Of a stretch of 64,000 bases of DNA, positions 33,237 through 44,640 are shown piece by piece. Source of the DNA: Longimicrobiales bacterium (GTDB lineage: Bacteria > Gemmatimonadota > Gemmatimonadetes > Longimicrobiales > Gaopeijiaceae); the NCBI GenBank assembly GCA_965202805.1, contig OZ241869.1, positions 1,312,001 through 1,376,000 on the forward strand, in the 5' to 3' direction. Position numbers and translations under genes: made by a program. The notes beneath the pieces were generated by a model. That model worked only from the letters and a program-made list of their open reading frames with translations. It was not told the origin of the DNA and did no database searches. Positions within the stretch are counted from its first letter, which is position 1, and every line of letters starts with the position of its first letter.

Positions 33237-33274
33237 AACAAACGCGCCCACCACCTTCGCGGGCGGCGGGCGCG
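33237..33274 (-). terminator. Intrinsic terminator closing the TBDR-PorV operon
   Basis: Minus strand CGCGCCCGCCGCC-cgcgaa-GGTGGTGGGCGCG followed by TTTGTT, 27 nt after the stop at 33302. Confidence 0.7.
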
Positions 33275-33301
33275 GACTGATGCGACATGCCGGCGCCGAC
33301 G

Positions 33302-35071
33302 TCAGCCTCCGAAGAACTCCTTGAACTTGTTCCTGTAGTCGTCGCTCTGCTGCACCCACATCTCGGTGATCGACGTGATGCCATCCGGCTCCAGCACCAC
33401 CAGGTAGTGGGTGAACGACCCGAAATCGCCGACCTGCCCCGCTTCCAGCCGGTCCATCCCGTTTCCGCGAGCATCCAGCGTGATCGTGTTGCCCCGGGAC
33501 GAAGTGCCGACGCCCGTAGGCGAGATGGCGGCAAGGTAGCTCTGGTAGTGCAGTCCCGGCGGCGGCGGCGGCAGCCGGTTGAGCTCCACCAGCAGCGAAC
33601 TCTCATAGAAGGACCCCGAACCCGAGCCACCACCGGAAAAGGGCTTGATCTTGCCGTCCGAACCCAGGTGGCCGAAGGTCATGGCCCCCTCCGCCATGAG
33701 GTTTTTGGAGGTCAGGTACTCCTGGAACAGGAACGGGCCACCCGTGGGGGAGCTCGCCTGCCCGGACTCGGCGCTCACCGCGACGTGCGTAAAGTCGGCG
33801 AAGCTCTGATCCATGGACACTTCCATCTTCGCGTGGTACACGTCCTTCGAGGATGATGGCGAGAAGGTGGAGCCCATCATCGTCATGTCCATGTCCATCG
33901 CGGGATAGATCGTGGCGTCTGCGGCCGCGTAGGAACCGGAGCCCGCGTCGTGCAGCCAGAGCTGGTAGGAACCGCCGGAGAGGGGCGAGAAGCCGCTCAG
34001 CGTGACGTCGATCTGGCCTGGGGCGGCGAAGGAATTGGCGCCCCCGGAGAGTTCCGGCGCGTTGGGCACCACGCCGGCCGGGAACGGCCCCATGGCGTTG
34101 TTGATGACGTTCCCGTCGGCGTCGATGTCGGGACCGAGCTGCATGCGGACGGTGGGGTTGCCGGCCGGGAGCGCGTCCGCGCTCGGCGCTCCCTCGTAGA
34201 GGAGCAGGTAGTTGTACTGCCCGGGCGCGACGCTGGCGCCCACCTCGTTCGAGCCGAAGGGGGTGTTGGCCGCGGTGAACTCGGCGGCCGTCGTCTCCTC
34301 CGCGCCCGCCGCCGGTACGGGCCACAGATCCCCGGGCGTGGCCCTGATGATGCAGTCGAGGGCTCCGTTGCCGTCGGCGTCGGTCTCGATGGTACCCAGC
34401 GCCACCGGATTGACCGGCGCGCCCACGCGGGTGATCGAACTGTAGTTGCATGTGACATTGGAATAAATCAACTGCCGCCCGGGGAGGAAGGACAACTCGT
34501 CGGGAGCGTCCACCGGGATGCCCGTCAGCACCTGGTTGTGGTCCAGTTCGCCGTTCACCTGAAGCGCCATGCGCGCCAGGACAATCGTATAGACCGTGGA
34601 AGGCTCGAGACCCGTAAGCTCACCCCACATGTCCCAATCGCCGGGCGCAAAGGCCGGGTTGCTGGAAATCGAAATCAGTTCCCACATGCCGAAGTGATTG
34701 CCCACCGCAGCCGAACTCTCCCGCAGCGCGGGGAGCCGGGGATCCTGCGAGGAGTTGCGAACCGAAACGCCCATGTCCACGGCAGCGGAGGTGAACTGTC
34801 CGTTGTTCACGTCGCGGAAGAACCCCGCCGCCCCCGTCCCCCGGTCAAACCCGTCCGGGACCGAGAAATCGAACCCGGAAACGACCGCCTTTGAGAGCGC
34901 GACGGATCCGGAGGGGTACACCGCATCCCCCGGCGCCATCACCATCTTGAGCACCGGCCGGTCCTCGGTGAGGTCGGTGACGTTGTCGGTCTGGCAGGCG
35001 GCCACGAGAAGCGCGCCGCAGAGGGCGACACCCGCCGCGTGCAGCCGAATTCGCTTGCGTACTGGATTCAT
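33302..35071 (-). CDS. Hypothetical lipoprotein (589 aa)
   Basis: Lipobox LLVAAC; beta-rich; C-terminal half has two similar modules (SYQLWL / HYQSYL...LVVLEPDG). Confidence 0.82.
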   Translation of the reverse strand: MNPVRKRIRLHAAGVALCGALLVAACQTDNVTDLTEDRPVLKMVMAPGDAVYPSGSVALSKAVVSGFDFSVPDGFDRGTGAAGFFRDVNNGQFTSAAVDMGVSVRNSSQDPRLPALRESSAAVGNHFGMWELISISSNPAFAPGDWDMWGELTGLEPSTVYTIVLARMALQVNGELDHNQVLTGIPVDAPDELSFLPGRQLIYSNVTCNYSSITRVGAPVNPVALGTIETDADGNGALDCIIRATPGDLWPVPAAGAEETTAAEFTAANTPFGSNEVGASVAPGQYNYLLLYEGAPSADALPAGNPTVRMQLGPDIDADGNVINNAMGPFPAGVVPNAPELSGGANSFAAPGQIDVTLSGFSPLSGGSYQLWLHDAGSGSYAAADATIYPAMDMDMTMMGSTFSPSSSKDVYHAKMEVSMDQSFADFTHVAVSAESGQASSPTGGPFLFQEYLTSKNLMAEGAMTFGHLGSDGKIKPFSGGGSGSGSFYESSLLVELNRLPPPPPGLHYQSYLAAISPTGVGTSSRGNTITLDARGNGMDRLEAGQVGDFGSFTHYLVVLEPDGITSITEMWVQQSDDYRNKFKEFFGG

Positions 35072-35090
35072 TTGGATCGCCTCCTGCCCG

Positions 35091-35798
35091 CTATGGGTTG
35101 AGACCGGGGACGTACGTCAACCCGATCGACAGGCGGATGTTGTGGATCATGTCCTGCTTGTCCGGGAGGTCGGTGCGTTCGGCATCCGGGAACCGACAGG
35201 CGCCGTCGCTTTTGCAGTTGCGCAGTCGTTCCTCCACCGGGTTCAGGACATCGCGGTCGAAATCCCTGTAGATGACGTCGCGCACGTCGATCTGGATGCC
35301 GGCCGCTTCGGTCACGGCGTAGCGCACGCCGGCGCCTCCCAGCACCATCTGATGGGTCACGCGCCGGAAGTTGTCGTTCGCCTGCGTATCCAGGTACAGC
35401 GTGGCTCCACCCCCGCCGACGACGACATATGGGTCCAGCGAGCTTCCGGGCATGACGCTGATGTGCGCGTTCAATCCGTAGTGCAGCGCGCTCAGCGTCT
35501 GGCCGACCTCGAAGATGCGGGTGCTGTCGGCGCCGAAGTCGACGGCGGCCACGTAAAAGCTCCCGTCGGTGTCGGCTCGGTGAAACTGGATCGCAGGCCC
35601 CAGCGCGATGCGTGGCGTGAGCTGATACAACGCCTCGAGCGCGAGCATGGGACTGTTCATGAGCGAGCTCGATGGGGCGTACATCTGAGTGCCCGCGGAC
35701 ACCTCCACGCTCCAGGCGCCCTGCTCGGACTGGGCATGCGCGGCCGAGGGCAGCGCGATCACCAGCCCGGCCAGCGCCAACCGGTTCAGTACTCTCAT
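35091..35798 (-). CDS. Outer-membrane beta-barrel protein (OmpA-like membrane domain)
   Basis: Signal MRVLNRLALAGLVIALPSAAHA, PYVVVGGG, GAGVRY, final strand IRLSIGLTY. Confidence 0.8.
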   Translation of the reverse strand: MRVLNRLALAGLVIALPSAAHAQSEQGAWSVEVSAGTQMYAPSSSLMNSPMLALEALYQLTPRIALGPAIQFHRADTDGSFYVAAVDFGADSTRIFEVGQTLSALHYGLNAHISVMPGSSLDPYVVVGGGGATLYLDTQANDNFRRVTHQMVLGGAGVRYAVTEAAGIQIDVRDVIYRDFDRDVLNPVEERLRNCKSDGACRFPDAERTDLPDKQDMIHNIRLSIGLTYVPGLNP

Positions 35799-35866
35799 CA
35801 GTCTGTTTCCTCCCGTCTTGCCACGGGGTCGCACGGCCAGGTCTCCCTCTTCGACACCGAGCCGCA

Positions 35867-36982
35867 TCAGAACTGCAGCTGGAAGCTGAAGACCTGAATG
35901 TTCTCCAGCTGCTCCATCGACGTGTAGGCGTAGTCCACGCTCAGCGTGCCCAGCTCCCCTACCGGCAGCCGCAGGCCTCCACCCGCCGCAGCCGCGTGCA
36001 TGAGGCCGTGGTCGATCTGGTCTTCGTTCGCGAAGCGCTTGCCGGCGCGCACGAAGGCCAGTCCCCTGAAGCCGTACTCAAGCCCGAGCGCGGTTTCCTG
36101 GGGCGCGTCGACGGGGTCGTTGATGTCGGCCATCAGCCGAAGCGACTGGTCCGCGTCCGGAGAAACGATCGCGTCCGCGCCCCCGATCAGGTCCAGCATC
36201 ACGCTGAAACGGAACGACGTGGGGAGTTCGAGATTGTCGGTCGCCGCGGACAATTCCATAACCCGGATGAAATCGACGACCTGGCTCTCGGAGAACGACG
36301 TGTTCACCCGGCTGTTAAGGAGGTTTCCCTCGAATCGGCCCGAAGTCCCGAGGTTGGTGAGCGACGCTCCGAGGGTAACGCCGTAGAGCCCGGTGCGGAA
36401 CACCGTGCTCATGTCGACGCCGACGTAGCTCGCCGTCGCGTTGGTGATTCCTTCCTCGACGACCTTGCCGGCAAGCCCCACCGTCAGGCGGTCGGTGATC
36501 GGCTGCGCGAAGTGCAGCCCGATCGCGGTCCCTGTCCAACTGAAGGACGCGGCGGTCGGATCCTGTTCGCCTCCGTAGCCGGCGTTGGGCCAGTACTCGC
36601 TCTGCCAGGGCATCTCCCCGGAATCGAGCGTGTTCACGCTTACGCCGATGCGGGTAAACCCGAAAGGCATCACCACGCCCACGAAGGTGTGCTGGATGTC
36701 GAGATCGGTGAACAGCCGCGCGGTCGTCATTCCGGCGGAAAAGCCGTTGATGCGGGACATGGCCGCGGTGTTCCAGTAGAGCGACGTGACGTCGTCCGCC
36801 GCCGCTCCGAAGGCGCCTCCCAGCGCCTGGCCTCGCGCGCCGACGCCCAGCGCGAGAAAGGCGGCGCCCCGGGTTCCGACCCGGGTCACGATCTGTTCCG
36901 GCGTCGAGGTCAGCGTTTCCTGAGCCTCCAGCATGTCCGCCGTCGCCACGAGCGTGAGCGCTAGCAGCAGTGCACGGTTCAT
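35867..36982 (-). CDS. PorV/PorQ-family outer-membrane barrel
   Basis: GAAFLALGVGARGQALGGA, DDVTSLYWNTA, GLEYG, VDYAY, C-terminal FSFQLQF. Confidence 0.88.
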   Translation of the reverse strand: MNRALLLALTLVATADMLEAQETLTSTPEQIVTRVGTRGAAFLALGVGARGQALGGAFGAAADDVTSLYWNTAAMSRINGFSAGMTTARLFTDLDIQHTFVGVVMPFGFTRIGVSVNTLDSGEMPWQSEYWPNAGYGGEQDPTAASFSWTGTAIGLHFAQPITDRLTVGLAGKVVEEGITNATASYVGVDMSTVFRTGLYGVTLGASLTNLGTSGRFEGNLLNSRVNTSFSESQVVDFIRVMELSAATDNLELPTSFRFSVMLDLIGGADAIVSPDADQSLRLMADINDPVDAPQETALGLEYGFRGLAFVRAGKRFANEDQIDHGLMHAAAAGGGLRLPVGELGTLSVDYAYTSMEQLENIQVFSFQLQF

Positions 36983-37008
36983 TGATCTATCTCCTTGGCC
37001 TCAGAGGC

Positions 37009-40000
37009 TCAGCGAATGACGACGAACTTGCCCATCTTCTTCTGGCCGCCGGATTCGAGGACGAAGATGTACAGCCCCGCTCCCAGGTTCGTCCGTTCGC
37101 GGGTCTGCATGTCCCAGTTCAGGTCTCCCCCGCAGTCCAGGGCGCCGCAGTAGGCGTCGATCCCCTGGAGATCCTCGGGGCCATAGACGAGCTCCTGGAT
37201 GAATCGTCCCGCCACGTCGAAGATGCGGATGGTCCCTTCCTGGGGAAGGTTGGTGAACTTCAGGACCCGCGCTTCGGTCGAGCGCTCGAACGCGCTCCCG
37301 TACAGGTAGGGGTTGGGCACCACGTGGACATTGTCCAGGGAAACCGGGCCGCTCGTCGCCGCCTCGGCCGCCGTTATCGCCCTCTGCACGTCCACCACCA
37401 CCTCGTCGCCCGACTCAAGGGGTACCAGCCAGGGGACCGTCAGCGTGACCTGCTCGGTCACCGGGATATAACCGGACTCGGTCGACCCTCCGGTGGTCGG
37501 ATCGCAGGAAGGGCGCGGGGCGTCGCAGCCGAAGGTCACGTCGAAGGTCACCACCGTGGCCGTCTCCGTCGCCGGCTGCCCGGCCGCATCCAGGACCGTG
37601 TTGCCCTGGTCGTCGGTCACCTCCCGGGTCACGGTCTCGACGAAGTAGATCTGGTCGCCCGGCACCCACACGCCCGCCGGAACGTCCACACGGGCCGTGT
37701 CGACCCCCTGTCCCACAAGCACCTTCTTCTGATGGTCGACCTTCTGAGTGTCGGCAACCGCGACCTGCACATCGCGGCCATAGGTGTTGTTGCGCACCGA
37801 GAACGGCAGCGAGTAGGACTTCAGAGTCTCGATCTCGGGATTGACCTTCTTGACGGCCGCGAGGACATCTTCGCCCGTGCTTGAGGTTGAGGCCGCCGGC
37901 CGCCCCGACAGGGATGCCGCCACGGTGGCCTCGATCGCCGCATCCGGAAGTTGGAAGGGCGCGCCCGCGCCCCAGGCGTCCGCGTTCCAAACGATCGCGT
38001 ACTCGCCGTACTCGTCTCCGCCCACGTACTCGGAGGGACCCGTCAGCCACCACACGCTGGGCCGCACGCGCGTTGCGATGGTGTCGGCGGACTCGGTGGT
38101 GAAGACTCTCGACTCGAGCGTACCTCCATCATCGGCGTTAACCGACACCGTGAAGAAGGGAAAGTCCTCCCGGCTCAAGAAGGTCCCCGGAGTCGCCTCG
38201 GCACCCTCCAGGGTCGTCGAGGCAAGAAGGGGCGTCGACCCGGCGGCGACCACCATGCCGAAGCCTCCTTCGAACACCTTGGTACGCTGCATGGAACTCT
38301 GCATCGCGCTGTCGACCGGGAGTTCGTCCAGCCCCGATATGGTAACCTTGCCCGACCGGTTGAAGTCCACGCTGGCGATCACGACCTCCTTCGGCTCCCC
38401 CTCCATGCCCGTGACCGTGCGCACCGTCTGTGCGGCCACGGTGGTCTGGGTGGAGGTCGGCGAACCGGTGTCGTCCAGGTTGTCCACCTGGTTGACCACC
38501 AGCTTGTCGCCGAAGACGACCCGGTACTGGCCGGAAACAGGGGAGGTTCCGACCACCGAGAATTCAACCGGTACGGTCGAGTTGCCGCTGCGCGAAACCT
38601 CGTTCAGTTCGGCCCGGCTGGCGCCTGCCGCCAGGTTGAGGGGCGCGTACACCACCGCGACGTTGGGGTTGGTGCCCGACGCGGACACCGGCCCGATCAG
38701 CTCGGGCGCGAACTCCACCTCCTCGGCAAGCAGCGAATCGACGTGCGTGCCACGCACCACGTTGAACGTGGCTCCACGCGTCTCCGTGACGATGGAGTAG
38801 GTATAGGTCACGCCGGGAATCAGCGCGAAATCGTTGAATGTGTTGGGCAGGGTGCCGTCGTCCTCGGCTTCGAAGGTGATGTACGGCTGCCACCCGAAGT
38901 TCGTCCATTTGGAAGTCGCGTCGACGACCGGGTCGCCGTCGCAGTCCCCATCCTGGGTCCAGGTGGAACCCCCGTCACAGGACTTGAAGATGTGGATGGC
39001 CGCAACGTTGTTCTCGGCACGCGCGGCGACCGAGTCCGCCAACCAGTAGTTGCGCGCGATGTCCGCGCTGACGTCGAGGTTTGCCAGGTAGGGGTCGATC
39101 CATTCCTCCGGGGCATCGTCGAAGAAGAGCGAGATGCGGTTCCCTTCGACCTCCCCTGTGGACGCCGCCTGGCCGCCGACCACATCCACCGCGGAGATCA
39201 CCGGCGGCGGGGCCGTCTCCGGCCCGAGGTACATCTGCTGGTAAAAGCTGATGGCGTTGTCGAGGGCGGATTCCATCGATACGGAGTCCGCAGCGCCCAC
39301 CAGCGCCACCACGAAGGGCACGGTGTCGCCCGGGGCCATGTGCACGGGACCCACGGCGATGTCGGCGATGTTGCCGTAGCTGTTGGTGTACCCGGAGGGG
39401 AGCGTGTCCGCCCAAAGCGTCACGCATCCGCGGCTGCCGCAGGCGTCGGCGTAGATGGTGTCCGGCTGCCCGTCGTGGTTCCAGTCCCAGGCGGGCGCGC
39501 CCGCTTCGCCCTCGCCCGGCACGTACTTGTTGTAGACGCCCGTGCGCTCCGGCCATGCCTCGGGCCGGAACGTGCGGTGGTAGGTCCGGTCGTCCAGGTC
39601 TCCCGGCGTCTCCCCATCCAGCGTGTATTCGCCGATCGAGGCGAAATGGCCGAAGTGAGCGCGCAGGCTCCGACCCCAGGTTCGCCCAATGCAGCCTCCG
39701 AACCCGCATTGGCGCTGGTGCTGAAACATGATGGTGTCGCCCGCGCGCGGATGCGAAGGATTGTAGAAGTCGCTCGACGGGTCGCTGAACAGCTTGTAGC
39801 GGGCGTCCCCGATGGGGGTCTTGAGGAACACGATGCCGGCACCCGCCGCGCCCAGGTTCCAGTCGAAACCCCCGCAACCCGAGCCCGGTGGATCGATCGC
39901 GTCCTCGCATCCGCTTCCGGTCTCCTTCCAGAGCATCGCGCTGCGCACGGGGTCGAAATAGTGCGCGTCGCCCTGTCCCTGCAGCAGCGGGTCGACGTTG

Positions 40001-41046
40001 ATGCCGATGTAGACGGAATCGTAGGTCATACCCACGCCGTATACCTTCTCGGATTCATTGACGATAATGGACTGGAAGTAAACCACATTCCCGACGGTGG
40101 GTAGCCCGAAGTAGAACGCGTCGTAGAACTGGGTGAGCCCCAGCGGCCAGCCGCCGTAAATGGGCGCTCCCGCGCCGCCGGGAACGACCGTGCCGTAGCG
40201 TTCGATGGCGTTCCGATAGTGGTCGCTCAACTCTCCGTAGGTCTGCCAGTCGCCCAGGAATTTCTCGGTGCTCTGCAGCTCCTCGGGCACGCGCCAGAAC
40301 GCGAACGGATCATGGTCGTTGGGGTTCATCGTGTCGTACATGGCTCCGAATTCGGGCGCGGACGACTGGAGCTCCAGGTACGACTCGGCGGGAACCGGGT
40401 GGCTCCCCTTCCAGCCGGCCGCGGGATGCGTGGCCTCGCAATCGGAGGTAGGGGTAAGCTGGAATCCCGGATTCATCAAGCCGGCGCGAACGCCGGAATG
40501 ATTCGTGCAGGTAGCGTCCTCGGTCGTTTTCGCCGCCAGGTTCAGCAGATCGACCGGGCTCCGGTCTGAAGCCCAGATCTTGTTGCCACCCCCGTTCACA
40601 AAACCACCGATGAGCAGCGTGGTCATGTTGACCGTGAAACCGCCGCCAGCGAGCCCGCTCGTGGCCGGATCGATGACTTCGGGCAGGTCGCTCGCGGGCG
40701 CACCCCACTTCATCCCCATGTCGAAGATAGCTGCCGAATAGCCCCCGGTTATCGTCCGAACCCACCAGTTGGCGCAGCCGAAGTGGTTGCGGTTCATGAA
40801 CCCGACGATGTTCTGAAAACACCAGATGTTGGATCCGTTTGCACGAACTCCGGCCGCGCCTTCGTCTCCGAATGCCCGCAACTGGAAGAGGTTCGGCCGA
40901 GTCGGAACCAAGAGGTCGGAACCCGCCCCTCCGGCGTCGATGACTGTCACCTCTTCCTGGGCTTGCGCCCCATCAGGCGTACCCAGGGGGATCAGGACCA
41001 CGCCCGCGATGAGGAGGCTTCCCCTAAGCGTGAGAAGTTTCTTCAT
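37009..41046 (-). CDS. Large secreted protein with T9SS type A-like C-terminal sorting domain
   Basis: Signal peptide; FN3-like segment (LIPGVTYTYSI); CTD motifs VHVVPNPY, IRIFDVAG, WDMQT, GLYIF, KKMGKFVVIR. Confidence 0.85.
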   Translation of the reverse strand: MKKLLTLRGSLLIAGVVLIPLGTPDGAQAQEEVTVIDAGGAGSDLLVPTRPNLFQLRAFGDEGAAGVRANGSNIWCFQNIVGFMNRNHFGCANWWVRTITGGYSAAIFDMGMKWGAPASDLPEVIDPATSGLAGGGFTVNMTTLLIGGFVNGGGNKIWASDRSPVDLLNLAAKTTEDATCTNHSGVRAGLMNPGFQLTPTSDCEATHPAAGWKGSHPVPAESYLELQSSAPEFGAMYDTMNPNDHDPFAFWRVPEELQSTEKFLGDWQTYGELSDHYRNAIERYGTVVPGGAGAPIYGGWPLGLTQFYDAFYFGLPTVGNVVYFQSIIVNESEKVYGVGMTYDSVYIGINVDPLLQGQGDAHYFDPVRSAMLWKETGSGCEDAIDPPGSGCGGFDWNLGAAGAGIVFLKTPIGDARYKLFSDPSSDFYNPSHPRAGDTIMFQHQRQCGFGGCIGRTWGRSLRAHFGHFASIGEYTLDGETPGDLDDRTYHRTFRPEAWPERTGVYNKYVPGEGEAGAPAWDWNHDGQPDTIYADACGSRGCVTLWADTLPSGYTNSYGNIADIAVGPVHMAPGDTVPFVVALVGAADSVSMESALDNAISFYQQMYLGPETAPPPVISAVDVVGGQAASTGEVEGNRISLFFDDAPEEWIDPYLANLDVSADIARNYWLADSVAARAENNVAAIHIFKSCDGGSTWTQDGDCDGDPVVDATSKWTNFGWQPYITFEAEDDGTLPNTFNDFALIPGVTYTYSIVTETRGATFNVVRGTHVDSLLAEEVEFAPELIGPVSASGTNPNVAVVYAPLNLAAGASRAELNEVSRSGNSTVPVEFSVVGTSPVSGQYRVVFGDKLVVNQVDNLDDTGSPTSTQTTVAAQTVRTVTGMEGEPKEVVIASVDFNRSGKVTISGLDELPVDSAMQSSMQRTKVFEGGFGMVVAAGSTPLLASTTLEGAEATPGTFLSREDFPFFTVSVNADDGGTLESRVFTTESADTIATRVRPSVWWLTGPSEYVGGDEYGEYAIVWNADAWGAGAPFQLPDAAIEATVAASLSGRPAASTSSTGEDVLAAVKKVNPEIETLKSYSLPFSVRNNTYGRDVQVAVADTQKVDHQKKVLVGQGVDTARVDVPAGVWVPGDQIYFVETVTREVTDDQGNTVLDAAGQPATETATVVTFDVTFGCDAPRPSCDPTTGGSTESGYIPVTEQVTLTVPWLVPLESGDEVVVDVQRAITAAEAATSGPVSLDNVHVVPNPYLYGSAFERSTEARVLKFTNLPQEGTIRIFDVAGRFIQELVYGPEDLQGIDAYCGALDCGGDLNWDMQTRERTNLGAGLYIFVLESGGQKKMGKFVVIR

Positions 41047-41104
41047 TAGAACTCCGATTGGACAAGTTTGGCGTCTCGTTGTGTTCTGACGGCTCCGGGG
41101 CGCC

Positions 41105-44100
41105 CTAGAAGGTGACCCTCATGCCGGCGGTGATCGTCCTCCGCTGCCCGAGGAACTGCGGTCGGTCGAAGAAGGTGGAATCCGTGTTGGTTCCCACCGT
41201 GTTCCCCGCCCGGCGGCGGCTCTGGTCCTCGGCGCCGTCGGTGCACTTCCCGGTCGACTCGTAGACCTGAATGCAGTTTGCGCGGTCGGTCAGGTTGTTG
41301 ACGTTGACAAAGAACCCATAGCGGACGTTGTTGATGGTCCAGTCTTTGCGCGCCTGCATGTTGAGGGTCATGAGCATGGGCGCCCGTCCGCTGTAGCGGT
41401 CGAACTGGTTGAGTTCGCCGAAGCCCGCAAACGACAACGTGGGCGTGTACGGCAATCCGCTCGAAGCGGAGAAGATCACGGAGAGGTTGGTGTTGGCGAG
41501 CAGGTCGCCGAACGGGATGTCGGGCACGTCGTCGCGCACCGCGAGCCGGAAGACGCCGGTGAACTTGTGGGGCTGGTCGATCTCGCATGGGATCTCGTCC
41601 CGAACGAAGGGATCGCCCTCCTCCGTCTGGGCCTCGAATTCCCGCTCCGGGTCGGCCGCATTCGTGCGGCAGGCCGAGAGACCGTAGTTGACGTCGAAAC
41701 CCCAGTAGTTCTCCACACGCCGGCGCAGCGCGACCTCAATTCCCCGCGTGGTCGCGAAGTCCTGGTTCGTGAGGATGGCGTAGTCGAGCGCCGAGAAACC
41801 GTAAGTGGCGCCCGGATCGATCACCAGGTAGGGTTGGCGGCCGACGCGAGCGACGCCGGTCAGGCCGCTCTGGTCCTTCGAGAAGATGACCGCCGAGAGC
41901 GCGTACTGGCCGTCGATCTCCTGCGAGTATCCGATCTCGTAGGTCGTTGCCTGTTCGGTGACCAGGTGCGGGTTGCCGAGGAAGGGCGTAGTGCCCGCGG
42001 AAGCGTTCACGAAGATAGCGGGTCCGGCGCTGGTCCCCTCCCGCGCCGTGCCGATGCCCGAGTTCCTGTAGTTGTTGATCAGGATCGGGTTCTGCGAGAG
42101 ACGCTGGAAGTTCAGGAACAGGCTCGAGCTCTCCGTAACGGGGAAGCTCACGCCGATCCGGGGGGAGAACTGCGAGCGGGTATCGGCCTCCGAGAAGTCG
42201 TCGGAAGATGCGATGCGCGTGGCTTCGTCGCGGACCTCGAAGGTGCAGCCGGCCAGCGTCCAGCTCGGATCGGCCGAAACGGTGGACGTGCTGAAGGTTT
42301 CGGTGGCCGGGTCGTATTCGCGAACCGAGACGTTCTGCCACTGCGACGGGTTGCTGCATACATCGAGCGCGGTGGTGCCGTTGGTCGGGTCGACGGGGTT
42401 GGCGAAGAAGAGCCCGGTCGCTCTCCCGTAGTCGAAGCGCGCGCCCAGCTTGAGCGTCAGGAAATCGTATTCGATCTGATCCTGGATGTAGACGGCTCCG
42501 TCCCAGGGCTGGGCTTCGAAGAGCTGATGCAGCTTGACGACGTCGTTCACGCCCACGTCCTGCCATTCGTCGTAGGTCAGGTCGTGGCCCTGGTAGAACA
42601 CGCCGCCGGAGATGTTGTGGTTGTCGGAGACCTGCGACTGGAAGTCGAAGCGCCCGGTCGTCGTCAGGACGCTTTCGCCTCCCCAGAAGGCATCGGTCCC
42701 GGCGGTCGGCGTGTTGCTGTACACGGCGGGCCCCGGAGCGACGAACCCCCCGTTGAAGTTGGGGTCTTCGTAGTGGTTCTCGAGGCAGACGCCGCTGACG
42801 ACGTTGCAGGTCTCGCGGCTCTGGTCGAAGCGCCCCACGGTGATCTTGTAGGCGGAGCGCCCGAAGGTGTGGTCCCAGCGCGCGATCAACAGGTTGCGGT
42901 CCAGCCGGAGCGAGTTCTGAGCCAGGTTCTGGTAGTCCAGCGTCCGCGGCCGCGCGAGGTAGTAGGCGCTGTCGGTGGCGGTGGTCATGTATTCGAGCGG
43001 GTTGACGGCGAGGGTCCAGTCGAAATCGAAGGGCTTGAACTCGCGCTCGTACCCCGCCCAGGAGACGTTCAGCTTGGCCGCCGGGGTCGCGTAGTAGGTG
43101 AGCTTGGCGTAGCCGTCCCGGACCTCGTCGAATCCGGTCGACCGCCAGCCGGGGATGACGTCGTTGGCGTCGGGCGTGTTGAACTCGGTGGACGGGTTCG
43201 ACGGGTCGAAGACGTCGTCGTCGAACTCGTACGCACGGGCCGCCCCGTACCTCTGCCTGCCGGCGATGAGGAAGCGCAGGTTGTCGCCGGTCATGGGGAT
43301 GGGCCCGGAGATGACGCCCTCGAACATGTCGAACCCGCGGGTCTGGTCGTACTGGTTGCCCAGCCATCCACCCACCTGGGAGGACCGGAATTCAAGCTCG
43401 CCCTGGAGTTCGTCGCTACCCTCGGGCGTGGCGTAGTTGACGACTCCCGAGAGGGCGTTTCCGTACTGCACGTCCAGCTGCCCGGTGAAGATCGCCACCT
43501 GCTCGATGGCCTTGTTGGTGATGTCGAAGGCCGGGCCGCCGAGCGCGAAGTTGTTGATCGGGATGCCGTCGATCATGACCGTGGTCTCGGCTCCGCGGCC
43601 GCCGCGGATGCGCAGGGCCGTAACCCCCTGCCTCTGCTGCGCGAAGGAGACCACGGTGGTGTTGTCCTCCGGAACCTGCAGGAAGCCCTGCTCCAGCTCG
43701 AGCACGCCCATGATGTCGGTCACCGGCAGCGCGTCGATCTCGTCCTTGGAGATCATCTCGAGCGAACCGGTCTGGCCCTCCACCACCAGCGGAGTGCGAC
43801 TGGTGGAGACCACGACCTCACCCAGTGCGATGGCCTCGGTGGCCAACTGGAAGTTCTGCTGCACCGTGACGTCGATGGAGACGGCGACGTTCTCCCGCCG
43901 CTCGCTGGCGTAGCCGATGAGTTCCGCGACCAGCGTGTACGTGCCGGGGGGAACGTTGATGATGAAAAAGCGCCCGTTTTCCTGGGTCAGCGACCCGCGT
44001 CCGGTTCCGTCGAGGAAGACCGAAACGTTGGCAAGGGGCTCGCCGGTGGCCTGATCCGTGACCACGCCGGTCATTTTTCCGGTCTGGGCGGCTGCGGGCG

Positions 44101-44170
44101 CGGCGGAGAGCAGAACCGCCGCCACGGCGACCCCGAGCAGTGCCGGGATCGTGGACAGAATACGTGTCAT
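41105..44170 (-). CDS. TonB-dependent receptor
   Basis: AAGGAGG RBS before ATG 44170; carboxypeptidase-regulatory-like domain; plug IRGGR...IDGIPI, YGNALSGVVN; FSPRIG; C-terminal GMRVTF. Confidence 0.92.
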   Translation of the reverse strand: MTRILSTIPALLGVAVAAVLLSAAPAAAQTGKMTGVVTDQATGEPLANVSVFLDGTGRGSLTQENGRFFIINVPPGTYTLVAELIGYASERRENVAVSIDVTVQQNFQLATEAIALGEVVVSTSRTPLVVEGQTGSLEMISKDEIDALPVTDIMGVLELEQGFLQVPEDNTTVVSFAQQRQGVTALRIRGGRGAETTVMIDGIPINNFALGGPAFDITNKAIEQVAIFTGQLDVQYGNALSGVVNYATPEGSDELQGELEFRSSQVGGWLGNQYDQTRGFDMFEGVISGPIPMTGDNLRFLIAGRQRYGAARAYEFDDDVFDPSNPSTEFNTPDANDVIPGWRSTGFDEVRDGYAKLTYYATPAAKLNVSWAGYEREFKPFDFDWTLAVNPLEYMTTATDSAYYLARPRTLDYQNLAQNSLRLDRNLLIARWDHTFGRSAYKITVGRFDQSRETCNVVSGVCLENHYEDPNFNGGFVAPGPAVYSNTPTAGTDAFWGGESVLTTTGRFDFQSQVSDNHNISGGVFYQGHDLTYDEWQDVGVNDVVKLHQLFEAQPWDGAVYIQDQIEYDFLTLKLGARFDYGRATGLFFANPVDPTNGTTALDVCSNPSQWQNVSVREYDPATETFSTSTVSADPSWTLAGCTFEVRDEATRIASSDDFSEADTRSQFSPRIGVSFPVTESSSLFLNFQRLSQNPILINNYRNSGIGTAREGTSAGPAIFVNASAGTTPFLGNPHLVTEQATTYEIGYSQEIDGQYALSAVIFSKDQSGLTGVARVGRQPYLVIDPGATYGFSALDYAILTNQDFATTRGIEVALRRRVENYWGFDVNYGLSACRTNAADPEREFEAQTEEGDPFVRDEIPCEIDQPHKFTGVFRLAVRDDVPDIPFGDLLANTNLSVIFSASSGLPYTPTLSFAGFGELNQFDRYSGRAPMLMTLNMQARKDWTINNVRYGFFVNVNNLTDRANCIQVYESTGKCTDGAEDQSRRRAGNTVGTNTDSTFFDRPQFLGQRRTITAGMRVTF

Positions 44171-44460
44171 GGTTGCCTCCTTTAACCAGCGAAAAGCGGG
44201 CGCCGCCTGACAGGCGCGCCCGCTCCCGAAGCGCTGACACGAACGATTGATATTCGTGTCAGGGCGTTTCGAATTCGTTATGGGGTTGTTGGAAGATGTC
44301 GACCGAACGATGGATTGTGTCACAGGCAACCTCCATGGTTGAGAGTGCACTCGCAAAAGTGCGTCCGAACCATGTACAGGACGGCCGGCGACCTGCTCCC
44401 CAACCCTTTTTCGGTACTCCCCCCACCAAGTCGCTGACCTCGGTACGTCAGCCCGGATTT
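44171..44460 (-). promoter_or_regulatory. Long structured 5' leader of the TBDR operon, attenuator-like
   Basis: Stems at about 44195-44224 (followed by TTTT on the minus strand), 44234-44261, 44334-44374 and 44433-44452. An 8-nt segment at 44324-31 is complementary to the RBS-proximal 44171-78. Confidence 0.5.
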
Positions 44461-44464
44461 GAGC

Positions 44465-44492
44465 ATTGTAACACAGCCGCCAAGGGTTGCAA
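44465..44492 (-). promoter_or_regulatory. Sigma70-type promoter for the TBDR operon
   Basis: Minus strand TTGCAA-N16-TACAAT with an extended -10 TG. Confidence 0.55.
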
Positions 44493-44640
44493 AGGGGTGT
44501 CCCGGCCCGGGATCCGGGACGCGCGAGGCGGGGTATCTGCAGTTGGGATCGGCGGAATGCGACGAGATCGCGGTTACCTTCTCGTTACATAAGCCTGATC
44601 GGACCGTGACAATCATGCTTCCCGCGAAGCCAGCCCCCGG

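Follow-up and report, generated by a model that had tools for sequence, protein, structure and literature searches.

A Gemmatimonadota operon that may couple a TonB-dependent receptor to a T9SS-tailed surface protein on its own PorV-family barrel

Introduction

TonB-powered importers with a surface lid are known from Bacteroidota, where the lids are lipoproteins such as SusD and BtuG. In the SusC/SusD utilisomes and in BtuB/BtuG, a TonB transporter with a CarboxypepD_reg domain comes first and is followed by surface partners and a lipoprotein. A comparable order of genes was found in 64,000 nt of Gemmatimonadota DNA (Longimicrobiales bacterium, assembly GCA_965202805.1, contig OZ241869.1, positions 1,312,001 to 1,376,000), hereafter called the window. 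The locus is a five-gene operon (Table 1) encoding a TonB-dependent receptor (gene 1), a large secreted protein with a type IX secretion system (T9SS) C-terminal domain (CTD, or tail; gene 2), a PorV/PorQ-family barrel (gene 3), a small outer-membrane barrel (gene 4) and a lipoprotein (gene 5). On balance, we favour the view that this conserved outer-envelope operon specifies a TonB-powered importer, the capture partner of which is the T9SS-tailed protein held on its own PorV-family barrel.

Several described T9SS components are relevant for the comparison. Type A tails of Flavobacterium bind PorV at SprA, from which the pair is extracted with energy supplied by GldLM (PMC10994853); a near-invariant lysine close to the C terminus of type A tails was described in the same paper. 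The tails of PorU and PorZ are retained in Porphyromonas, where PorV and PorQ appear to anchor the two proteins, and cargo builds up on PorV if PorU is lacking (PMC5562754, PMC11285876). All type A tails use one PorV according to PMC12618676, which also describes the type B CTD cargoes of Flavobacterium johnsoniae with their PorP/SprF barrels. A survey of 2016 found complete T9SSs in Bacteroidetes only (PMC4793230), the system has been reported as possibly present in Gemmatimonadetes (PMC11285876), and sprA is linked to TonB-C proteins in bacteria of the Fibrobacteres–Chlorobi–Bacteroidetes (FCB) group (PMC12419801).

By analogy, the unit described here resembles SusC/SusD and BtuB/BtuG in logic and PorQ–PorZ in anchoring. 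It differs from the former in that the receptor is not of the SusC type, the partner is an all-β T9SS cargo of 1345 aa instead of a helical lipoprotein lid, and no glycoside hydrolase is linked to the operon. With the PorQ–PorZ and PorU–PorV pairs of the Porphyromonas gingivalis T9SS attachment complex (PMC5562754), it has in common a PorV/PorQ-family barrel and a type A tail that is predicted to stay uncleaved, and the tail of gene 2 matches the tail models of both PorU and PorZ; unlike in those pairs, the cargo is an unrelated protein of other domains, encoded together with a TonB receptor in a genome without PorU. As in the F. johnsoniae type B pairs, the cargo gene is linked to its own location-setting shuttle barrel, but the tail is of type A and the barrel is PorV-like. 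The xylan locus Rmar_1070-1073 of Rhodothermus marinus (PMC6987092) contains a TonB receptor gene followed by those of a hypothetical CTD protein and a further hypothetical protein, with SusC/SusD also present; it is not treated as a unit in the accessible text of that paper and is taken here as a lead only.

No description of a receptor-cargo-PorV triad was found in the literature searched, which consisted mostly of the main texts of papers outside subscription; the available text of PMC3534657 and PMC12452284 contains none, and a term search of the 2026 transporter review PMC13543919 returned neither PorV nor T9SS. New here are the five-gene subfamily, the fold of the cargo, the absence of PorU, the coexistence with SusC/SusD and the stand-alone cargo genes.

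Results and discussion

Conservation and unit-wise duplication of the triad

The five open reading frames (ORFs) all lie on the minus strand, separated by gaps of 58, 26, 68 and 19 nt in order, just as a first-pass annotation made from the letters of the window had read them (five co-oriented genes, gaps under 70 nt), and a purine-rich stretch is found upstream of every start codon. Related loci were collected by a scan of GTDB genomes, where the best 80 of 185 related stretches (78 loci) were analysed; the counts refer to loci whose flank permits a call, and 16 of the 78 are close relatives and hence not independent. The receptor precedes gene 2 in 65 of 70 assessable loci and PorV follows it in 63 of 68, while the small barrel is present in 57/61 and the lipoprotein in 53/57, and the gene order is kept down to approximately 28% identity. 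The trees of receptor, tail and PorV agree (72 triads), and the distance matrices correlate at 0.83–0.88, values inflated by kinship. Paralogous triads of the same genome fall into different clades in all three genes (L050/L056; L094–L095 vs L097–L098), and since the three genes separate alike, the triad duplicates as a unit. The synteny and co-phylogeny that the first-pass annotation had put forward for checking were thus found in these loci.

The record titles of the 78 loci name Gemmatimonadota groups with the exception of four probably mislabelled and two unlabelled entries. The four (L009–L011 and L013), deposited as Gammaproteobacteria, are 88%–89% identical to the window protein and are probably mislabelled instead of representing transfer. 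The operon or its first genes were also seen repeated in tandem or near-tandem on one contig (L026, L031, L074 and L050/L056).

Phylum-wide counts were made in an even sample of 151 Gemmatimonadota genomes. Full-length homologues of gene 2 occur in 13 of them and matches of any length in 72, and of 15 other genomes from the taxonomic family of the window, 11 lack the full-length protein family. The distant tail matches proved to belong to receptor-cargo-PorV triads in the same order in all 20 cases inspected, which were chosen for long contigs. Outside the tail, the distant cargoes have only a remote relationship to gene 2: one group matched it with a profile–profile probability of 85% at the supersandwich-FN3 junction (see below), and the match of a second group was not significant. 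The fourth gene of the distant triads differs, being a GWxTD protein in 3/3 tested, and two of these triads lie directly behind exbB-like and tonB genes. In many genomes of one family, a second triad subfamily was noticed approximately 10–25 kb from sprA (L086–L093, L102–L104); here the triad is followed by a GWxTD-domain gene (three tested) and a probable lipoprotein gene, and the tails mostly end with an NFAQ/NFAP-type motif.

The tailed protein and its PorV-family barrel

The signal peptide of gene 2 was read from the sequence, and the profile search identified 329 relatives at E ≤ 0.001 among 1.84 billion representatives. No Pfam match was obtained, the profile search of PDB gave a single chance match (E 0.73), and the clusters obtained from the ESM Atlas, which come from Zixibacteria, Fidelibacterota and Gemmatimonadota, were all unnamed. 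The tail was more informative. The first-pass annotation had called a type A-like CTD, and the motifs quoted there are present; the isolated tail (last 110 residues) passes TIGR04183 with 24.3 bits against a cut-off of 23. The PNP motif is retained in 98 of 101 full-length family members, and GKF, including the lysine near the C terminus, is invariant in 49/49 aligned tails. Of these 49 tails, 34 matched the PorU model, 30 TIGR04183 (E ≤ 0.01), 25 PorZ and 5, weakly, FlgD, and the sole PDB match of the tail profile was PorU (6za2, E 0.007). The assignment to the type A T9SS CTDs is supported by these sequence comparisons. One homologue of 1963 aa (P0030) includes an OMP_b-brl domain, suggesting read-through or an assembly fusion of genes 2–4.

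The AlphaFold2 model of residues 54–1229, built from 61 sequences, had a mean predicted local distance difference test (pLDDT) score of 86.7 and a predicted template modelling (pTM) score of 0.69. Foldseek with the whole model gave weak matches (best E 4e-4), and the domains were compared separately. The predicted β-supersandwich resembles the N-terminal domain of glycoside hydrolase (GH) family GH15, GH94 and GH65 enzymes and mutarotases: its best match was 1lf6_A (Z 15.9, root-mean-square deviation [rmsd] 3.3, 230 aligned residues), and glucoamylase, dextran dextrinase, glucodextranase and GH94 phosphorylases were matched with Z 15.9–14.3, rmsd 3.3–4.4 and 230–256 aligned residues at 5%–10% identity. 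It is directly followed by a predicted fibronectin type III (FN3) domain with insertions (Z 10.0, rmsd 2.0, 93 aligned), then by further β-rich domains in the remaining approximately 420 residues (804–1229), which the fold search barely reached. Thus, the GH15 glucoamylase/glucodextranase and GH94 phosphorylases (1lf6, 1ulv, 4zle) share the fold of residues 54–608 at Z 14–16, but their (α/α)6 catalytic barrel is missing from the model of gene 2, which contains only scattered helices and has FN3 and other β domains instead. The protein was consequently rejected as a GH15/GH94 enzyme, while a supersandwich of the sugar-enzyme type without the catalytic barrel fits the role of a binding partner.

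Gene 3 had been called PorV-like, and this was confirmed at the level of the family: it reaches 111.8 bits in the PorV/PorQ family model NF033709 (cut-off 90) and stays under the orthologue (equivalog) cut-offs of NF033710 (21.4/250 bits), NF033711 (39.3/220) and NF052325 (57.2/325). Its profile matches PorV 6h3i_F (E 7.6e-5) and no FadL structure, and it groups with PorV/PorQ instead of FadL. The FadL family PF03349 (Toluene_X) gave 17.3 bits against a cut-off of 29.7 with partial coverage of the model, so that membership in FadL/OmpP1 was rejected. The genome holds three PorV-family genes, gene 3 among them, which are at most approximately 30% alike. The other two lie at C1:955242-956483 and C1:3104702-3105742 (L002, L003), with no tailed cargo detected beside either; they are candidates for a general PorV and a PorQ-like barrel.

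The receptor has a CarboxypepD_reg domain (residues 34–121) and a plug (133–243). On the SusC model TIGR04056 it scores 46 bits against a cut-off of 368, and SusC identity was rejected. None of the five operon genes matched SusD.

Table 1. Positions of the operon genes, domains and regulatory elements in the window
Feature	Position	Strand	Basis
Promoter, sigma-70-type with extended −10	44465..44493	−	Pattern search and recurrence in close loci
Leader, about 290 nt	44171..44460	−	Aligned leaders
Gene 1, TonB-dependent receptor, 1021 aa	41105..44170	−	Signal peptide, plug, barrel ending in Phe
Gene 2, secreted protein of unnamed family, 1345 aa, 16 Cys	37009..41046	−	ORF, profile searches
Predicted β-supersandwich of gene 2, residues 54–608, ending in helix	39223..40887	−	AlphaFold2 and fold search
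Predicted FN3 domain of gene 2 with insertions, residues 609–803	38638..39222	−	Match to 5fn6_A
Type A T9SS CTD of gene 2, invariant PNP and GKF motifs (sequence-based)	37012..37341	−	TIGR04183, alignments
Gene 3, PorV/PorQ-family barrel, 371 aa	35867..36982	−	NF033709
Gene 4, small outer-membrane β-barrel OMP_b-brl, 235 aa	35091..35798	−	PF13505, E 8e-10
Gene 5, lipoprotein, 589 aa, lipobox Cys26	33302..35071	−	Lipobox kept in relatives
Intrinsic terminator-like hairpin	33237..33274 (stem 33274-33243)	−	13 pairs and U-rich tail

Secretion and uptake genes in the genome and the phylum

The genome consists of one contig and is 98% complete. SprA is encoded by a 2053-aa ORF at G000 C1:1417140-1423301, which is over the cut-off of TIGR04189 and lies 41 kb past the end of the window. 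PorU was absent in the genome-wide search, where only the tail region gave a match; as a control, the PorU cut-off was passed in 16/151 genomes, all of other classes. PorP and type B tails were undetected in the genome by a search that had no positive control. The first-pass statement that the window is devoid of SusD, SprA, PorU and the Gld genes agreed with the genome-wide searches, which returned no window match for SusD, SprA, PorU, GldL, GldM or GldN (GldK was not searched). The sprA gene (L004–L006) is located between PilT-like and LptF/G-like genes, named by reading of their sequences.

Two type A-like tails were detected in the genome, that of gene 2 and that of a small protein at C1:429654-430349 (L007), which is little more than a tail. 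Matches to the tail region in comparably short frames (140–250 aa) are frequent among the genomes of the phylum, and this kind of protein may be the common client of SprA. A short tail-only frame also lies directly upstream of a gene 2 homologue in L030.

In the 151-genome sample, SprA was found in 120 genomes and GldM in none, the GldM search having no positive control. Tails of the gene 2 type were present in 71 genomes, all of them SprA-positive, and in none of the 31 SprA-negative ones; 49 of the 120 SprA-positive genomes lack this tail type. A Fisher test of this association is inflated by kinship, and no weight was placed on it.

The genome has TonB genes and 13 SusC/SusD pairs elsewhere. 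SusD and tail copies were compared in 26 hand-picked triad-positive genomes. The nine from other classes had 2–18 copies of the tail without any SusD match; of the 17 from the same class, with 1–4 tail copies, 14 also had SusD. A small number of evolutionary events may account for this pattern. As SusD is found in the same genome and class, the triad is no simple replacement of SusC/SusD, and replacement was rejected for this genome, in which the unit complements the retained SusC/SusD pairs. The operon itself was likewise rejected as a SusC/SusD polysaccharide utilisation locus (PUL), since it has no SusC-type receptor, no adjacent SusD and no carbohydrate-active enzymes among the neighbours scanned. 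The term "PUL-like" chosen in the first-pass annotation is therefore weak here, with no glycoside hydrolase beside the operon or among the recurring neighbours and 13 SusC/SusD pairs kept by the genome.

The proposed import unit and its alternatives

Given that SprA is present, PorU is absent and a private PorV is encoded adjacent to gene 2, export of the big protein and its retention on that PorV is the simplest interpretation. Its strict linkage to one receptor subfamily, the unit-wise duplication and the binding-type fold make it a likely capture partner. In such a unit, the five products, the signal peptides of which are seen in the sequence, would be exported by Sec and the three barrels inserted into the outer membrane. 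The 1345-aa protein would in all likelihood cross the outer membrane via the single SprA of the genome, with its tail on the operon-encoded PorV. Without PorU the tail would not be cleaved, and the protein quite probably remains on PorV as PorZ does on PorQ. The β-supersandwich would then bind a solute or polymer beside the receptor, which probably takes it up using energy from TonB. The leading candidate substrate, tentatively suggested, is a glycan or oligosaccharide. The small barrel and the lipoprotein, the linkage of which is evident from the loci, may be accessory subunits of this subfamily.

Several observations weigh against this reading. In Flavobacterium the GldLM motor is required for pulling cargo off SprA (PMC10994853), and GldL, GldM and GldN were undetected genome-wide here (no control genome contains these families). 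The whole gene 2 protein scores only 16.2 bits, under the TIGR04183 cut-off, and a shared fold proves no function. In five of 70 loci (L030, L053, L065, L083 and L085), gene 2 stands without receptor or PorV; at least one of them, L083, is from an assembly that also includes a full operon (L082). The co-occurrence of SusD in most of the same-class genomes described above adds to these points, as does the setting of the operon, which lies among housekeeping genes here and beside the ATP synthase operon in approximately 15 of 56 distant loci (L041 and L077 included), and no glycoside hydrolase or lyase was present among the six window neighbours and six recurring distant-locus neighbours scanned. 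The flanking genes provide no clue to the substrate. Taken as the first-pass annotation had worded it, a surface-anchored capture partner on a cognate PorV, the proposal gained from the presence of SprA, the absence of PorU and the supersandwich lacking a catalytic barrel, and lost from the lone big genes.

The fold of gene 2 leaves room for a surface enzyme of epimerase- or lyase-like activity that is anchored on PorV and trims a polymer close to the receptor but does not cap the latter. The fold matches include stand-alone supersandwich enzymes (aldose epimerase, Z 11.3; GH174 fucanase, Z 10.5), the supersandwich contains several invariant Asp, Arg and Asn residues, and such an enzyme would agree with the big gene being alone in five loci. 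The top fold matches are, however, non-catalytic N-terminal domains of GH15/GH94 enzymes at 5%–12% identity, neither Pfam nor PDB gave a credible sequence match, and the distant triad cargoes have only the architecture in common and not the candidate active-site residues, all of which makes an enzyme unlikely. The same surface location would suit an abundant structural or adhesive complex, with the big protein as adhesin and the receptor as scaffold or general importer. This rather unlikely alternative draws on the housekeeping context and the sigma-70-type promoter, on the richness of cargo and lipoprotein in FN3 and immunoglobulin (Ig) domains, and on the mostly single copy per genome in this class. 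It fits poorly with a receptor that has retained its plug and N-terminal extension and with the patchiness of the full-length family, and the up to 18-fold presence of triads where SusD is missing is what would be expected of substrate-specific importers.

The undetected motor raises the question of energy. It is very unlikely, in our estimate, that the receptor relays TonB energy to the PorV–cargo pair and so pulls the complex off SprA in a T9SS without GldLM. The frequent occurrence of SprA in the phylum without detectable GldM, the need for energy in Flavobacterium extraction and the triads located 10–25 kb from sprA in many genomes speak for such a relay, but SprA must have other clients in the 49 SprA-positive genomes without the tail, and the GldM search lacked a positive control. 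A still less probable explanation dispenses with the T9SS altogether; in it, the tail is a generic Ig domain of the FlgD kind and gene 3 a FadL-type small-molecule channel. It can point to the weak Toluene_X/FadL match and to the five tails with weak FlgD matches, whereas gene 3 is above the NF033709 cut-off and below that of FadL, its profile finds PorV and no FadL structure, the tail profile finds PorU only, and SprA is present in all 71 tail-bearing genomes.

Should the importer with a PorV-held capture partner be correct, capture-and-import machines could be built in yet another way, from a T9SS cargo seated on a PorV of its own. This tail type is found in about half of the genomes sampled and is expanded where SusD is missing. 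Gene 2 would provide a concrete substrate for the SprA pore in genomes without a detectable motor or sortase, and the powering of a minimal T9SS would become testable in a cultured member of Gemmatimonadota. A far more speculative extension, which we regard as improbable, is that receptor, tailed supersandwich protein and private PorV together make up a phylum-spanning third class of capped TonB importer. The secreted protein would serve as the lid, which in Gemmatimonadetes would exit through a stripped T9SS (SprA and PorV only), TonB energy via the receptor or capture by the receptor replacing GldLM.

The lipoprotein, the regulatory elements and the neighbourhood

The lipoprotein of gene 5 is predicted to be all-β (pLDDT 79), with a Greek-key N-terminal domain like that of superoxide dismutase (SOD) and Ig-like domains. 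The fold match to Cu/Zn SOD is middling (Z 8.2, rmsd 3.2, 112 aligned) and in 20 sequences compared, none of the columns that are invariant or nearly so is a histidine, so that a SOD enzyme was rejected for want of conserved His metal ligands. Judged from the model, the protein is not a SusD and most likely not a dismutase either; the ESM Atlas search with it gave only leads under 0.9.

As to the elements said to bound the operon, the terminator held (folding z-score −3.9), while the promoter did so in part. Taken alone, the promoter-like site is approximately at chance (two overlapping matches vs 1.1 ± 0.9 in shuffles), but 14 of the 16 closest loci have a comparable −35/−10 pattern, with variable spacer, at approximately −320 to −365. 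The leader contains a hairpin followed by a U-run (approximately 44195–44235) directly before the ribosome-binding site; it is conserved at the genus level only and its covariation is weak (1 of 15 pairs). An upstream Shine–Dalgarno sequence and GTG lie in frame with the receptor in 10 of 13 aligned leaders (window 44171–44330, minus strand), at distances of 150, 153, 162 and 213 nt, all stop-free, and this reading frame crosses the hairpin and the U-run. An attenuator or an extended N terminus of the receptor is possible. Both the hairpin and the upstream start are absent from the distant loci examined. The Rfam search of the leader matched no family or riboswitch, hence regulation gives no clue to the substrate either. 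In a sponge metatranscriptome, contigs of an approximately 90%-identical relative bridge all four gene junctions, the longest spanning 38349–44369; such contigs cannot prove a single transcript or its level and may derive from DNA, and they were not counted as evidence.

Upstream, the divergent neighbour of the operon encodes a class A penicillin-binding protein, and downstream lie genes for a cupin, a DUF6782 protein and dehydroquinate synthase. In approximately 10 of the distant loci, the operon is found near a LytTR response regulator.

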